Positions 8,697 through 30,007 of a stretch of DNA of 55,794 nt are shown here, one piece after another. Source of the DNA: a virus; the IMG/VR virus record IMGVR_UViG_3300045988_069429; one strand, 5' to 3'. Under the pieces are notes generated by a model, which was given only the letters and a program-made list of their open reading frames with translations, was not told where the DNA came from and made no database searches. The translations under genes and the position numbers were made by a program. Position 1 is the stretch's first letter; every line of letters starts with the position of its first letter.

Positions 8697-10691
8697 TTAA
8701 TAAGGGAATGCTGCTTGCCCTGTCATATTAGTGTAGTTATTAGCTTTATCCTGTACCATTGCAAACAATTTATCAGCGTCACCTTGTAGTGTTATATTAA
8801 CGTTGTTGTTAGCTTCTGACATAGCCGCCACAACTGCATTGTAAACCGCTGGATAAACTGCATTAGCAATACCTGTTGTGATTTCCTGCTGATTGGCTAC
8901 TGCTGTTCTTCCGTCCATAGTACCAACCATTTCGGGTGCTACTTCATTAGCAACGAATAACTGTCCTTTGTTTGGAAAGCCGCCATTTGCATACCAATCA
9001 ACACTTATCTTGGGCACTTGAGGTGGCACAAGACTAAATTCGCCATCAATATCGAAATGTGGCGTTTTTATATGTGGGAAGCTAAGTCCTAAGTTGTCCC
9101 ACCAATCTTTGAAATTATACCACATATCTCTTACTTTATAAAAAAAGTTCTCAACGGCTACTGAAATTTCACTAAGGGATGGTTTGCTATCCCACCAATT
9201 AACTACATTATTCCACTTATCTTGTATGCCTACTCTTATTCCATCTGCCATATCACGCCATCTATCTGCCGTAAAGTAAGGTGCTACGTGATTATTCCAC
9301 CAATTGTAAATTCCGGTTGTGCTCCACCAAGAAGAAAAATCAGACCATTTATCTTGTAGACTTGACTTGAAATTATCACCCAAGTTGTTCCATTTATCTT
9401 TAGCAAACCAAGGCGTAACATCATTATTCCACCAATTATATATACCTGTGCCACTCCACCAATTATTGAACGAAGTCCAACTATCAGTTAAGCTGCCCTT
9501 TGCGTTATCTCCAAGAGATTGCCATTTTGCTTTTGTAAAATAAGGCGCTACGCTATTGTTCCACCAGTTGTATATTCCTGTACTACTCCACCAGTTATTA
9601 AAAGAAGTCCAGCTATCTTGCAAGCTATCTTTTGTATTATCTCCAAGTGACTGCCACTTCGCTTTAGTAAACCAAGGCGTAACATCATTATTCCACCAAT
9701 TTACGATTGCTGTATTATTCCACCAATCTGTAATTTCATTCCATTTTTCTTGTGCAGCTATTTTTATATTTTCTATGCCATCTTTTGCTTTTTTTACATA
9801 TTTACTATCATCTATGCTTGCTGAAAATTCCGTAATAAATTTAAGTGTAAGAATTCCGCCCGGAATAACCAAAGAAGCCAAAATTCCTGCAATTCCCCAT
9901 TTGTCGTATATCTCCTGGTAAGCACCCCATATTAATTTTATTGCTGATACTCCTAAGTCAATTGCTAGGTCCAAAATTTTTACAGTTATTTTTCCTAAAT
10001 CTATACCTTCAATAAACTTTATTATATTTCTTCCTAATTGTTCCCAATCAACAGAACTAACAAATCCATCTGCAAAATCCAAAACATTGCAAATAGCTTC
10101 TGTAATTGCTTCTCCTGTTTTTTTCCAAGGAAAAGCATTTATCCCTTTGTTTATTTGTTTGCCTGCGTAAGTACCTATTCCGTACCAGTCACCCTTTTTT
10201 ATGGCTTTTTCTATTCTATCAGCCCAAGCAACTGCCGAATTTTCCATATTGGCAAATGCTTTATTCCACGCCGCTTCATATTCTGCCGCCGCCTTAGCAA
10301 TATCATCTGTCAAATCAATAGTGCTACCGCCACCACCGCTTGAGCCCTTGCTTGAGCTTGTATCGTCCTGCAATTTATTTATTTCATCAAATCCCATAAG
10401 GGATAATGTAGCTTTCTTAGCTGAATCAGCTACATCTTTGTAGCCGTCTGAAATATCTTCTAAGCCATCTGATGTGTCTTTATAACCACTTTGTCCGAAG
10501 CTCTCAAAGTCAATCTTAACACCCATTAAAGAAGCAAGATTGACTAATAATCTTTTGATTACAATAGTTACTCCGTTTACTACTGGCATAACCTTTGAAA
10601 GAATTGGGATAAATAGCTGTCCTGCTACCATTCCTACCTCTTTCATATTGTTACTGAACTGGCGTAACATATTACTTGGGGAGTTGATTGT
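8697..10691 (-). CDS. Tape measure protein, exon 2 (C-terminal 664 aa)
   Basis: It begins TINSPSNMLRQFSNNMKEVG..., which continues the conserved TMP core motif interrupted at 11032. The track start is a TTG and there is no RBS. Confidence 0.8.
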   Translation of the reverse strand, partial: TINSPSNMLRQFSNNMKEVGMVAGQLFIPILSKVMPVVNGVTIVIKRLLVNLASLMGVKIDFESFGQSGYKDTSDGLEDISDGYKDVADSAKKATLSLMGFDEINKLQDDTSSSKGSSGGGGSTIDLTDDIAKAAAEYEAAWNKAFANMENSAVAWADRIEKAIKKGDWYGIGTYAGKQINKGINAFPWKKTGEAITEAICNVLDFADGFVSSVDWEQLGRNIIKFIEGIDLGKITVKILDLAIDLGVSAIKLIWGAYQEIYDKWGIAGILASLVIPGGILTLKFITEFSASIDDSKYVKKAKDGIENIKIAAQEKWNEITDWWNNTAIVNWWNNDVTPWFTKAKWQSLGDNTKDSLQDSWTSFNNWWSSTGIYNWWNNSVAPYFTKAKWQSLGDNAKGSLTDSWTSFNNWWSGTGIYNWWNNDVTPWFAKDKWNNLGDNFKSSLQDKWSDFSSWWSTTGIYNWWNNHVAPYFTADRWRDMADGIRVGIQDKWNNVVNWWDSKPSLSEISVAVENFFYKVRDMWYNFKDWWDNLGLSFPHIKTPHFDIDGEFSLVPPQVPKISVDWYANGGFPNKGQLFVANEVAPEMVGTMDGRTAVANQQEITTGIANAVYPAVYNAVVAAMSEANNNVNITLQGDADKLFAMVQDKANNYTNMTGQAAFPY
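9230..9760 (-). repeat. 132-nt (44-aa) Trp-rich tandem repeats in the tape measure, about 4 copies
   Basis: WWNNDVTPWFTKAKWQSLGDNTKDSLQDSWTSFNNWWSSTGIYN is repeated. The DNA unit attattccaccaatt recurs at about 9291, 9423, 9555 and 9687. Confidence 0.85.
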
Positions 10692-11031
10692 CAAATTTGT
10701 TATCGTATAGGCTCTTTATCCTATACTTCTTATAGTTTCCTATAAGTTCAGAGTACATTATCACCCACGTTTTTACGTTTGGTTTGGTGGTAGCCACTTT
10801 CACCTCATACTGCCCTATATGCAGTAGTGTCGGACACTCTTGGGAATATTATATTTATTCAATTCCTACTCGTTACGATACTCAATAACCTGTTCGTAAT
10901 CTATTGAGTTATCTCGGTATTAGCATAGTTGAAAACTTTAGCCTTCACCGATTTTGCCCGATTGCCATAAGATATTTCTATTCTTATGCAACACTTGGAA
11001 GATAAGCTATGTCATTAACTTTCTTCCGTCT
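10692..11031 (-). other. Candidate group I self-splicing intron (ORF-less, 340 nt) in the tape measure gene
   Basis: Exon 1 ends ...GAT TTA GCT AAU| and exon 2 starts |ACA ATC AAC. The insert ends in G. It contains many perfect hairpins, including CUUAUAG-GAAA-CUAUAAG, GUAUAGG/CCUAUAC and ACUCAAUA/UAUUGAGU. The joined reading frame gives WGDLAN-TINSPSN. Confidence 0.65.
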
Positions 11032-12303
11032 ATTAGCTAAATCGCCCCAAGATACTTTACTTTGGTCTAATATTGCCAACACTCTTAACTGTTGTTTTTC
11101 CATCTGTGTCATTTCAGACACCGACTTAGAAATGCCTAAGTTGTAAGCATACGTCGCTAATGTAGCATTGGTAATATCAATACCATACTTGTACAATGCC
11201 CTCGATTGTCCGATTAAACCGCTTTGTAAGTTCTGTGCTACTGTTGAATAGTCCACATTGAAAAGTGAGCTTATATCGCCCGCAAGCATTGTCATTGACT
11301 TTGTTATAGCCGTTGTTGCTTCGCCTGTCTGTCCTAACGAATTAGTAACAGAAGCTAACTGTGAAGCATACTGTGTTACTTCTTGTATGTTAAGTCCTAA
11401 GTTCTTTGCTCCACTTTCTTCAAGCAAACCACCTTGAATATTAACTTTTAAACCAGACAGCTTTCCGAGAGTATCGTTTACTCTGCTTTGGAAGCTCTCT
11501 GCATATGCTGTTGCGTTATCATATCCGTACTTTTCGTAATCTTTATCCCACTCTGAACCAATCTTGCCAAACGCAACCGCTTGATAGTTGAAAGCTTCAA
11601 TGTAATCTGTTGTTGACTTGATGGCTTCTATAAGCTTCTTACTGCCACGAATTACCATAAAATAAGTGGCATAAAACTTGCCTATTGCACTTGCCAAGTT
11701 CCAACTGCTCTTAGTCGCTGTCCTAACGCTCGTAGAAACGCCATACAGTGACTTTTGAAGTGAGTTTGAAGAAGTACCCACCTTGCTACCTTGACTAGCA
11801 AGATTAGCCAATGCGTTAGTCATTTGAATGACATTTTGACTTACTGTTGGTGCTCTTGATAGCGTTGTCATTAAGCCATTTAAAGCATTGCCTAGCTTTG
11901 GAATGTTTACAACGGCATTTTCAATACTTTTACTGCCTAGCTTACCAAGTGACTTTGCAAATTCTGTGACCTGTGTTGCATTTTGCGGAATAGCTGATAT
12001 GCTTGCAACTGCCTTTGTGACAGCTTGAAGTGATGTAGCTGTGTTAGTTAGTGCAACTGAATCAACAGAACCTATCTTTGTGATATTCTTGGCGAGCCTT
12101 GTAAAATCTGCTGTTCCTGCGTTCATATTCTGCATAGCAGAGCCTAACTGACTAACACCATTTGCAAGACCGCTTAGTGATGAACCATTCACAGTTGCAA
12201 GTGATGTTGACAGCCTTGTAAGCTGATTTATCAGTTTATCAACAGAATTGATAGCTTTAGTGGCAGTACCGGTAATTTTGACTTCTAACGAATCTAATTC
12301 CAC
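11032..12303 (-). CDS. Tape measure protein, exon 1 (N-terminal 424 aa)
   Basis: Follows the G/GT chaperones. It has a helical Ala/Ser/Leu-rich N-terminus and the core motif ...QMEKQQLRVLAILDQSKVSWGDLAN. The 16 codons after N in the track ORF are read-through into the insert. Confidence 0.8.
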
Positions 12304-25278: not shown

Positions 25279-25425
25279 AAATTACCTCCTGTGAAAGATA
25301 ATAGCACTCCGCTTGTGCTTAATCTGTGAATAACAAAACAACAAACAGGCAGTTCACAGGTCTGCTTTTCGGTAGCTAACCTAGTTTGTTGTTAATCTGA
25401 CATATGGACTTGCACCATACCCGCA

Positions 25426-25482
25426 CGCCAAGCTAGGGAATCGAACCCCACGCTTAAAAAAATACATCTTCAAGCGCATACC
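25426..25482 (-). pseudogene. tRNA-like remnant: T-arm and 3' acceptor strand plus a 7-bp hairpin, with no 5' acceptor or D-arm
   Basis: Minus strand: CTTGAAG-ATGTATT-TTTTAAG hairpin, then TGGGG-TTCGATT-CCCTA-GCTTGGC-G. I found no complementary 5' strand. Confidence 0.4.
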
Positions 25483-25554
25483 GCCTTATAATGAGAATCG
25501 AACTCATCTCGCACTATGCTGTCAGAACAAAGCACATCTTAACCTAGGATAAGT
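25483..25554 (-). pseudogene. 72-nt tRNA-like element with a canonical T-arm but a mismatched acceptor ends and no standard anticodon arm
   Basis: ACTTATC...ATGAG-TTCGATT-CTCAT-TATAAGG-C. Pairs 1-72 and 7-66 are mismatched, and the central hairpin has a 10-nt loop. Confidence 0.4.
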
Positions 25555-25599
25555 CCGCAAACAGCATTATGTACGCAAACCTAAGAAATGCTTTCAAAA

Positions 25600-25682
25600 C
25601 GCCGATATCGTGAATCGAACACGAACAACATTTCTGTTGGATAGCTTAGCAAGCTACTGGAATACTTTTATCCCATATCGGC
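25600..25682 (-). tRNA. tRNA-Ser(GCU), class II
   Basis: Folded by hand: GCCGATA/TATCGGC acceptor, GGA/TCC D-stem, GTAGC-TTGCTAA-GCTAT anticodon arm, CAACA-GAAA-TGTTG variable arm, TCGTG-TTCGATT-CACGA T-arm. Confidence 0.85.
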
Positions 25683-25686
25683 AAAG

Positions 25687-25776
25687 TGGAGAAGATAGGA
25701 ATTGAACCTACAATGTTTACCGCAAGGGAACAGATTTACAGTCCGCCGCAACACCGCCAATCGTTACCGCTTCCCC
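25687..25776 (-). tRNA. tRNA-Tyr(GUA), class II
   Basis: GGGGAAG/CTTCTCC acceptor, GCGGA-CTGTAAA-TCTGT anticodon arm, GTAGG-TTCAATT-CCTAT T-arm. The variable arm fold is less clean. Confidence 0.7.
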
Positions 25777-26139
25777 ATATCGTTTTAAAAGACTAGCATT
25801 GTGAAAATGTTTCGATTAAGGTGGATAGTTGATACTGAAAAACAATGCTAGTCTTAATAGCAGTATAGGCTATGACACCTATAACAGGTCGTGGCAAAGC
25901 TTGGATGTCATTCTACTCGTGCAGTTGGGCTCAAAGAAAGTAGCTTCGCTCGCTGTCTATCCATACAGATAACTGCTGCGCTATAGGTATAACTTAATTT
26001 TATTTGCGTATTTATAATACGCAAAACCTCACGGACTATCTGACAGTCCTTAACAGCTCTCGCTATGAGGTGAAAGGAGGACTTAATGCTAGTAAACCAA
26101 TAAGTCCTGTAAAGGCACAAGTGTAATTAAACACTTGAA
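25777..26139 (-). ncRNA. 363-nt structured non-coding spacer inside the tRNA array (unknown RNA)
   Basis: Perfect hairpins: 13-bp aagactagcattg/caatgctagtctt (25789-25857), 8-bp tttgcgta/tacgcaaa (26003-26025), ggact/agtcc with a 7-nt loop (26033-26049), 8-bp aggactta/taagtcct (26078-26108). Only short overlapping ORFs. Confidence 0.5.
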
Positions 26140-26211
26140 CTACCCCTGTGGGATTTGAACCCACGATACAGGAATCAAAATCCTGTGCCTTGACCACTTG
26201 GCTAAGGGGCA
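26140..26211 (-). tRNA. tRNA-Gln(UUG)
   Basis: TGCCCCT/AGGGGTA acceptor (U1-A72, G73 as in bacterial tRNA-Gln), CAGGA-TTTTGAT-TCCTG anticodon arm, GTGGG-TTCAAAT-CCCAC T-arm. Confidence 0.9.
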
Positions 26212-29420: not shown

Positions 29421-29753
29421 ATGAAAAAATTAACAATTGCAGAAAAGAGAGAAAAAGAGCTAAGAAGAGCAACAGAAACATACAATATTGAATATGATAT
29501 TGCTAAAAAATTGATAAATCGCTTCTACAGACTGAATGCAGACCTTGACAGGTTATCATATTTAGAAAACGAGGAAAGAACTTGCAACAGAAGAAGCACA
29601 AAAGAACTTTCCGAAAGCTGTGACAGGCGAATTGATAAATTAAATAAAGATTTAGAGCCTTACGGCTTAGCACTGGATAGCTTTAGTCACTTAATGACTA
29701 TTGTAGTAAAAGGCACTACAAGGACAGCAATAGAAAGTTTTTATTATAACTAA
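29421..29753 (+). CDS. Hypothetical protein (charged, helical)
   Basis: First ORF of the plus-strand cassette. Confidence 0.55.
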   Translation: MKKLTIAEKREKELRRATETYNIEYDIAKKLINRFYRLNADLDRLSYLENEERTCNRRSTKELSESCDRRIDKLNKDLEPYGLALDSFSHLMTIVVKGTTRTAIESFYYN

Positions 29754-29917: not shown

Positions 29918-30007
29918 CCGAAACGCTCCAGAGTGGAGCGTCAGCCGCGGACCGGTCGCCGTGGCTCTGATGATGGTAGACCGCACAATGAAAGGATGAT
30001 TGATTAT

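Follow-up and report, generated by a model that had tools for sequence, protein, structure and literature searches.

The tape measure protein (TMP) gene of the phage represented by IMG/VR record IMGVR_UViG_3300045988_069429 is very probably a single gene interrupted by a group I intron, which is predicted to be removed by splicing. The window, by which we mean the whole 55.8-kb stretch of DNA analysed here (55,794 nucleotides, nt), is a phage genome with 36% GC, and the coordinates of the intron refer to its minus strand. The element itself is 340 nt long, carries no open reading frame (ORF) and occupies positions 10692-11031 (-); it was recognised by its match to the Rfam group I intron model RF00028, by the stability of its fold, by its exact absence from sister genomes and by covariation among its copies. 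Exon 1 (11032-12303, -), defined by the ORF list and a PHROG match, has 424 codons from a GTG start and ends ...GAT TTA GCT AAT, while exon 2 (8697-10691, -), defined by a PHROG match and by intron-less homologues, begins ACA ATC AAC and has 664 codons plus a stop.

The preliminary description of this DNA had proposed a group I intron splitting one TMP gene, with two ORFs parted by 340 nt that could be rejoined in frame into a protein of about 1088 residues, and the coordinates and frames given there proved exact. The ORFs listed around the insert (10984-12303 and 8697-10694, both minus strand) each run a little way into it, and after removal of 10692-11031 the join ...GCU AAU / ACA AUC... yields a single ORF of 1,088 amino acids (aa; 119 kDa). 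The insert has stop codons in all three frames, its longest internal reading frame being 43 aa, and the exon-1 frame is closed by an in-frame UAA at 10984-10986 (-), 15 codons into the intron and ahead of the catalytic core. In all intron-bearing relatives the exon-1 frame ends ...(L/E)(P/S)SVA* at the equivalent position, just before helix P2. The base that precedes the insert is T and its last base is G; as the first intron base and the first base of exon 2 are both A, the boundary can slide by 1 nt only, and the rule of a U before the 5′ splice site and a terminal G therefore favours the coordinates used here over that slide. The spliced transcript is predicted to read ...TGGGGCGATTTAGCTAAT/ACAATCAACTCCCCAAGT... 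across the junction, and the tryptic peptide predicted to span it is VSWGDLANTINSPSNMLR (residues 417-434).

That the two exons are parts of one tape measure protein is supported by family profiles and by intact homologues. Both match PHROG 1535, 'tail length tape measure protein' (2e-11 and 3.9e-21), exon 1 over family positions 2-345 and exon 2 over positions 360-579, and on PHROG 28918 their coverage is contiguous, exon 1 taking positions 2-192 and exon 2 positions 193-397; the Pfam TMP_3 match of exon 1 is weak, at 20 bits against a cut-off of 41. A 260-aa tblastn query spanning the junction was matched in a single piece in 82 phage records, among which are proteins annotated as tape measure in phages of Roseburia, Clostridium and Streptococcus. 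Alignment with intact TMP homologues, suggested earlier as a check, thus shows no gap and an exact ...LAN/TIN... junction: the intron-less homologues (33-74% identity) are gap-free across ...KVSWGDLAN/TINSPSNM..., reading ...KVSWGDLANTINSPSNM..., with query residues D147, A149 and T151 invariant among them, and the insertion point lies midway along the motif that is best conserved in the TMP. The hosts of these intron-less homologues are genomes of Lachnospiraceae and other gut Clostridia. A search of genome contigs served to name these clades; with two patterns, one of which crosses the junction, it returned intron-less copies only and is no guide to intron copies. In the GenBank phage collection we found no close relative of this phage, the matches there being to short fragments of the intron. 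The C-terminal half of the TMP (about 9170-9720, -; residues about 750-935) also contains four to five tandem, tryptophan-rich repeats of about 44 aa each, of the form ...GIYNWWNNxVxPxFTKAKWQSLGDNxKxSLxDxWxSFNNWW....

The insert has the sequence signature of a group I ribozyme. When the 751 nt from 10500 to 11250 were scanned permissively, RF00028 was the sole family matched at E <= 10, aligning at 10729-11009 (-) over model positions 1-253 of 253 with 48.2 bits (E = 4e-11). This alignment yields the strands of P3, P4-P5, P6 and P7, with the joining segment J8/7, P8 and a GAAA-capped P9; in P7, GAGUA/UACUC differs from the consensus GACUA/UAGUC by a middle pair flipped on both strands. The minimum free energy of the insert is -87.7 kcal/mol, compared with -62.95 +/- 4.89 for dinucleotide shuffles (z = -5.06, with 0/100 shuffles as good). 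Subgroup IA2 is defined by two extra hairpins, P7.1 and P7.2, between P7 and the 3′ strand of P3 (P3′). Here one covarying hairpin (P7.1, nt 166-189 of the intron) lies between P7 and P3′ and there is no second, while P8 is instead elaborated into three hairpins; from these sequences the intron is best called IA-like.

Sister genomes show the insert as a discrete element. Among the best 80 of 353 relatives in IMG/VR, about 99% identical in the exon-1 TMP query, 32 have no insert, their exons abutting exactly at AAT/ACN; 34 have a short insert of 337-341 nt like that of the window; and 14 have a long insert of 1,275-1,276 nt. An artefact of assembly, or a chimera, affecting a single contig is refuted by the wider distribution of the element: more than 100 contigs, assembled independently and drawn from many samples, contain the insert at the same site, in 59 distinct variants, and we found no point that supports an artefact. 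An apparently near-isogenic intron-less allele (P0007 / L047, 96% identical to the window's protein) was set aside as its contig context is odd and it may be chimeric, and we therefore relied on the 32 intron-less IMG/VR genomes instead. L047 is a 10-kb contig on which a 280-aa junction-spanning TMP fragment, with no intron, lies beside Mur ligase, TPR and STAS genes; the contig may be a chimera of assembly or the remnant of a prophage.

We drew a secondary structure on the window sequence, comprising P1a, P2 to P9.1 with P7 as a pseudoknot, P7.1 and a three-hairpin P8 domain, and compared it across 55 distinct cores (81-99.7% identity, with endonuclease segments removed). From the 5′ end, and with all coordinates on the minus strand, a hairpin at nt 5-35 (10997-11027), which we infer to be an extension of P1, has a conserved base GGAAGA/UCUUCC and a variable tip, with both sides changed in 5/11 of its pairs. 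P2 (nt 44-66; 10966-10988), with a GAAA tetraloop, shows such changes in 5/9 pairs. The 5′ strand of P3, UCGGGCA (10955-10961), pairs with UGUCCGA (10830-10836) in the drawn structure and the pair counts, giving seven pairs that are 100% paired, five of them invariant, and that correspond to P3 of RF00028. Both-side changes are found in 4/9 pairs of P4/P5 and 2/4 of P5a (nt 81-118; 10914-10951), in 5/11 pairs of P6/P6a (nt 119-155; 10877-10913) and in 4/5 pairs of P7.1 (10843-10866), a peripheral hairpin that is an insertion relative to RF00028. The 5′ strand of P7, GAGUA (10867-10871), part of the guanosine-binding helix, pairs with UACUC (10751-10755), which is preceded by J8/7 (AUAAUG) in the RF00028 alignment and supported by the drawn structure and pair counts; P7 is invariant in all 55 copies. 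The P8 domain (nt 203-270; 10762-10829) consists of an outer stem CAC/GUG around P8, P8b and P8c, and in these inner hairpins 4/6, 3/4 and 1/4 pairs change on both sides. P9 (GAAA-capped, 10729-10746) and P9.1 (10705-10726) together span 10705-10746 and are about 100% paired and nearly invariant. The intron ends in a G at 10692, the putative omega-G, placing the 3′ splice site between 10692 and 10691.

The preliminary description had listed five helices in the insert, four of which belong to this structure: CUUAUAG-GAAA-CUAUAAG is P9, GUAUAGG/CCUAUAC is P9.1, ACUCAAUA/UAUUGAGU is P6a and AUAAGA/UCUUAU is P2. The fifth, AGUGUC/GACACU, we rejected, as it would close a 1-nt loop; its bases belong to P3′ and to the base of P8.

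Across the 55 cores, standard pairs fill 98.9% of the cells, against 96.0% in shuffled alignments and 32-42% in slid registers, a percentage that is somewhat inflated, as these cores are relatives of one another and include the sequence that served as the basis of the drawing. The number of pairs in which both sides change is a sounder measure, robust to that inflation: it is 34 of 92, compared with 9.6 +/- 2.0 in shuffles (0/500 of which reach the observed value) and 2-10 in slid registers. These compensatory changes, which are located in P1a, P2, P4, P5, P5a, P6, P7.1 and the P8 hairpins, show selection on the RNA fold.

This evidence bears on the possibility that the TMP is now encoded by a gene in pieces, the insert being a splicing-dead relic and the two halves being translated separately (exon 2 from the TTG or a nearby ATG) and assembling without RNA ligation. 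In its favour, annotation by gene callers gives two ORFs, and the start of exon 2 is placed variously: at a TTG formed by the last three bases of the intron, at an internal ATG of exon 2 (MLRQF...) or, where the copy is shorter by one base, at an ATG inside the intron (MYSELIGNYKKYRIKSLYDNKLTINSPS...; window 10672-10803, -, relatives P0051 and P0101). These differing calls therefore give rise to several spurious protein clusters. A precedent for a functional protein in pieces is also known, in the form of a ribonucleotide reductase split by endonuclease insertion, a case cited in PMC10448857, and the Rfam score of the insert lies just under the gathering score. We nevertheless consider a gene in pieces very improbable, since a dead relic would not be under selection to hold 34/92 pairs through changes on both sides, in copies down to 81% identity, nor to keep P3, P7 and J8/7 invariant. 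The U at position -1 and the terminal G are also kept in every copy, and the best-conserved motif of the TMP is cut through its middle. Exon 2, moreover, was said in the preliminary description to lack a ribosome-binding site and to be listed from a TTG, and indeed we found no Shine-Dalgarno-like sequence upstream of that TTG and no excess of promoter-like sites in the insert region over shuffles.

Returning to the group I intron, its splice sites are uniform among relatives. Across all fetched loci there are 59 unique inserts at this site, and in 59/59 the preceding base is T, the last base G and the next triplet ACA, which bears out the U and terminal G pointed out earlier as the expected boundary; six more diverged copies also have the terminal G, followed by ACA, ACT or ACC. 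U(-1), at 11032 (-), is the last base before the 5′ splice site, and intron A1, at 11031, the first after it. The exon bases before it are biased in intron carriers: position -1 is T in 21/21 distinct intron-bearing flanks (136 loci) and in 24/39 intron-less flanks (Fisher p = 5e-4), the remaining 15/39 having another base, mostly in a synonymous AAC, and position -4 is T in 17/21 intron-bearing compared with 16/39 intron-less flanks (p = 0.006), and T or C in 20/21 of the intron-bearing ones.

We infer the internal guide from complementarity and conservation. Intron nt 36-44 (AAGUGUUGC) are invariant in 55/55 distinct copies while the neighbouring hairpins vary, and within them U39 G40 U41 U42 G43 (10989-10993, -) could pair with a P1 5′ strand made of exon U(-4)A(-3)A(-2)U(-1) and intron A1 (11031-11035, -). 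The proposed P1 would have G40 opposite U(-1), U41 opposite A(-2), U42 opposite A(-3), G43 opposite U or C at -4 and U39 opposite A1 of the intron, an arrangement with which the base usage at exon positions -1 and -4 is consistent. U39 and G38 could subsequently form P10 with A+1 and C+2 of exon 2. We also tried G38 and G43 as partners of U(-1); each is mismatched at the next position, and G40 is therefore preferred as the wobble partner. The guide suggested in the preliminary description, GUUAAU (nt 13-18), did not survive comparison: it sits in the variable tip of the P1-extension hairpin, a tip that is replaced or deleted in the relatives L299, L300, L301 and L303, and it permits no P10. 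Because it is absent from L300 and L299, it cannot be the guide.

Several observations weigh against a group I intron that splices, or limit what the structure can tell us. The RF00028 score is 1.8 bits under the curated gathering score of 50, and Rfam scans of all 55.8 kb find nothing at the insert, whether run at the gathering threshold or permissively by E-value. The proposed P1 has only 4-5 pairs and P10 only 2, and one intron-bearing copy (L299) has A at -4. P3, P7 and P9.1 are invariant across the 55 cores and hence uninformative for covariation, although invariance is the expected state of core helices; a P8 domain with three hairpins is unusual, and likewise its invariant outer stem gives no covariation signal. 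To these must be added the inflation of the paired-cell percentage noted above. The ribozyme match, the compensatory changes, the exact polymorphism, the restored frame and the endonuclease of sister copies (described below) are, for their part, direct observations, and splicing in vivo, the exact pairings of P1 and P10 and the direction of the endonuclease change are predictions.

The Rfam results also depend on how the scan is run. A same-site relative, L200, scores 50.0 bits with RF00028, which equals the gathering score, and L200 alone was detected when seven relative loci were scanned permissively, so that Rfam is unusable for surveying relatives. The permissive whole-window scan misses the intron because its filters become stricter with more sequence; as detection varies with the length scanned, these scans therefore cannot exclude other weak introns in the window. 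The RF00028 scan put forward in the preliminary description was thus negative in gathering mode and positive, at full length, in a local permissive scan, and the default gathering result, being blind to this intron, would if taken at face value have wrongly refuted the group I assignment.

A default scan with no hit at the insert is also what might be expected if the insert were some other structured non-coding element (a regulatory RNA, another class of ribozyme or a small mobile element) lying between two independent tail genes, and its opposite strand does fold somewhat better than chance (z = -3.15). This explanation is effectively refuted by the full-length match to RF00028 and to no other family, by helices that correspond one-to-one to P2-P9, by sister copies that hold a homing endonuclease in a loop, and by the flanking ORFs being halves of one family profile that are fused in 32 sister genomes.

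The long insert of the relatives consists of the same ribozyme plus about 940 nt in the P5a loop, at a point which, by comparison of long and short forms, is equivalent to about 10929-10933 of the window. The 311-aa product of this addition has two domains that score above their Pfam cut-offs, GIY-YIG at 38.4 bits (cut-off 22.6) and NUMOD1 at 50.4 bits (cut-off 22.8), and it also matches PHROG homing endonuclease families; seven diverged copies at the same site in other assemblies all (7/7) have a GIY-YIG ORF, of 232-306 aa. The window's own intron contains no homing endonuclease ORF. Given the endonuclease of its sister copies, it is therefore best read as an endonuclease-less derivative, and so a non-autonomous member, of a mobile lineage, the direction of change (loss of the endonuclease) being the one that these comparisons suggest.

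A footprint of such mobility may be preserved in the exon-2 flank. Intron-bearing alleles have an almost uniform start of exon 2 (ACAATCAAYTCCCCAAGT), while intron-less alleles mostly have other synonymous codons there, for example ACGATTAACAGCCCATCA, and include the sequences ...GCTAAT/ACGATTAACAGC... and ...GCTAAT/ACAATCAACTCC.... Co-conversion during homing would fit this pattern, as would empty sites that resist the endonuclease, and so would the two together. The ORF-less intron, present in about 40% of genomes, might also be kept as a shield against the endonuclease of co-infecting sister phages.

We propose that the TMP gene would be transcribed as one pre-mRNA, in which the conserved UAA would stop ribosomes before they reach the catalytic core; by analogy, the early in-frame stops of T4 introns are thought to keep ribosomes from unfolding the ribozyme. 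The intron would fold into P1-P9, with a P3/P7 pseudoknot, the extra P7.1 and an elaborated P8. An exogenous guanosine bound at P7 could then attack after U(-1), held in P1 by the G40-U wobble, and the exon-1 3′-OH, once freed, would attack after the terminal G, giving ligated exons ...GCU AAU-ACA AUC... and a single 1,088-aa (119 kDa) tape measure protein. Having lost its endonuclease, the window copy would now be a passenger, which must keep splicing because its host gene is essential.

The same stretch of the TMP gene appears to receive other inserts in relatives. Four of them, L231 (3113-3437), L205, L233 and L234, have a different insert of 324-325 nt after ...QSGLIGQSRA, between TMP residues 369 and 370. 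This insert has a stable fold (z = -4.27) and a 3′ end, ...CGGUAACAAAUCG, similar to that of the window intron, the two sharing the ending ...GGUAACAAAUCG; it has no RF00028 match even in a 371-nt scan, and its natural boundary puts C, not U, before the splice site. Truncated relatives among P0088-P0120 have two different read-through tails at residues 369/370, ...SRA-ELLVA* and ...SRAL-TYIAHK...STTIEMVA* (44 aa), and further truncated endings are found near TMP residues 419-433 (P0044, P0089, P0098 and P0086), where inserts are possibly also present. These endings point to a cluster of several distinct inserts in the best-conserved TMP block, as at the three sites of Bacillus cereus prophages discussed below, and the insert at 369/370 could be a divergent or atypical self-splicing ribozyme missed by current models. 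The combined idea, that the conserved block QSGLIGQSRALYKYG...SWGDLANTINSPSN is a hotspot, that the 369/370 insert is an atypical ribozyme and that the ORF-less intron is protective, is speculative and, taken as a whole, we hold it to be unlikely.

Other structured RNAs are present elsewhere in the window. The gathering-threshold Rfam scan identified three tRNAs, an int-alpA RNA and a type II hammerhead ribozyme. The hammerhead (RF02276; 29916-29985, +; 49.1 bits compared with a gathering score of 37, E = 4e-7) has 66% GC, against 36% for the genome, and is flanked by a 110-aa ORF (29421-29753, +) on one side and the following plus-strand ORF on the other. The latter is listed from a GTG at 29933 and so overlaps the ribozyme; its real start is probably an ATG a few codons before ...MIDYMTIYK. 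The int-alpA RNA (RF02996; 25324-25391, -; 44.6 bits) adjoins the three tRNA genes, which are also on the minus strand, at 25600-25682, 25687-25776 (weak, 30.3 bits) and 26140-26211, the whole region spanning 25324-26211.

The preliminary description regarded introns in phage structural genes as uncommon. An intron in this TMP gene is supported here, but it is less unusual than was supposed, as group I introns in TMP genes have been reported (PMC2504315; PMC10448857), and the window intron is an addition to documented TMP introns and no new kind of element. Tourasse and Kolsto (2008) described IA1 and IA2 group I introns at three sites of the TMP gene in prophages of the B. cereus group, named TMP-IVS1, -IVS2, -IVS3a and -IVS3b, some of them without a complete endonuclease (PMC2504315). 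The window intron resembles these in its IA-like character, in lying in the TMP gene of Firmicutes (pro)phages, in having several insertion sites per gene family within conserved stretches of the host gene, and in the existence of copies, common to related phages, whose endonuclease gene is incomplete or missing. It differs in that the host clade here is gut Lachnospiraceae and other Clostridia, in that the TMP family and the insertion motif are different, and in that empty, ORF-less and endonuclease-bearing states coexist here within one phage species.

In the words of Barth and co-workers (2023), TMP is a 'frequently interrupted gene', and their RNA-seq and RT-PCR data demonstrate that the transcript of Vibrio phage ICP1 is spliced to encode a full-length TMP (PMC10448857). 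As in ICP1, the TMP gene discussed here is split by an intron tied to a homing endonuclease, with variable endonuclease content in conserved surroundings. ICP1, however, has HNH-3 endonucleases and a Gram-negative host, whereas the window copy lacks an endonuclease and its sisters carry a GIY-YIG enzyme; splicing, demonstrated in ICP1, is predicted here. Introns are also spliced from capsid and minor tail genes of cluster J mycobacteriophages (PMC3706429).

Staphylococcal, clostridial and other phages have introns that match the 3′ third of this one at 77-98% identity, and related introns occur in streptococcal phages too. A parallel in gene context is the TMP intron of Staphylococcus phage 6ec, which is 77.5% identical over the last 107 nt (P8c, J8/7, P7′, P9, P9.1, ...GAUAACAAAUUUG), and in which the N-terminal part of the TMP, an endonuclease and the C-terminal part of the TMP follow one another, annotated as separate genes. 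The 6ec intron lies at ...VVQLG/NNMATQES..., in a different TMP family, and has an HNH endonuclease. The td intron of T4, with its endonuclease I-TevI, is a further relative in kind: it is of subgroup IA with extra P7.x hairpins and a GIY-YIG ORF in a peripheral loop, an early in-frame stop closes the frame of its upstream exon, and its homing is accompanied by co-conversion of flanking exon sequence. It differs in that its host gene encodes thymidylate synthase and its ORF lies in P6, not P5, the window copy being ORF-less; no sequence similarity between the two was noted, though no search aimed at it was made.

This finding leaves knowledge of group I introns, and of tape measure proteins, unchanged. 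Its consequence is for annotation: the tape measure of a very common gut phage is split between two ORF calls, of 439 and about 665 aa, that are treated as unrelated, with 1,019 member sequences in a single exon-1 protein cluster, and analyses of tail length or of protein families that are built on such split ORF calls will be wrong. In addition, three stages of the homing cycle stand side by side within one phage species, together with the footprints of co-conversion, and form a natural data set suited to studying how introns are gained and lost in the human gut virome.

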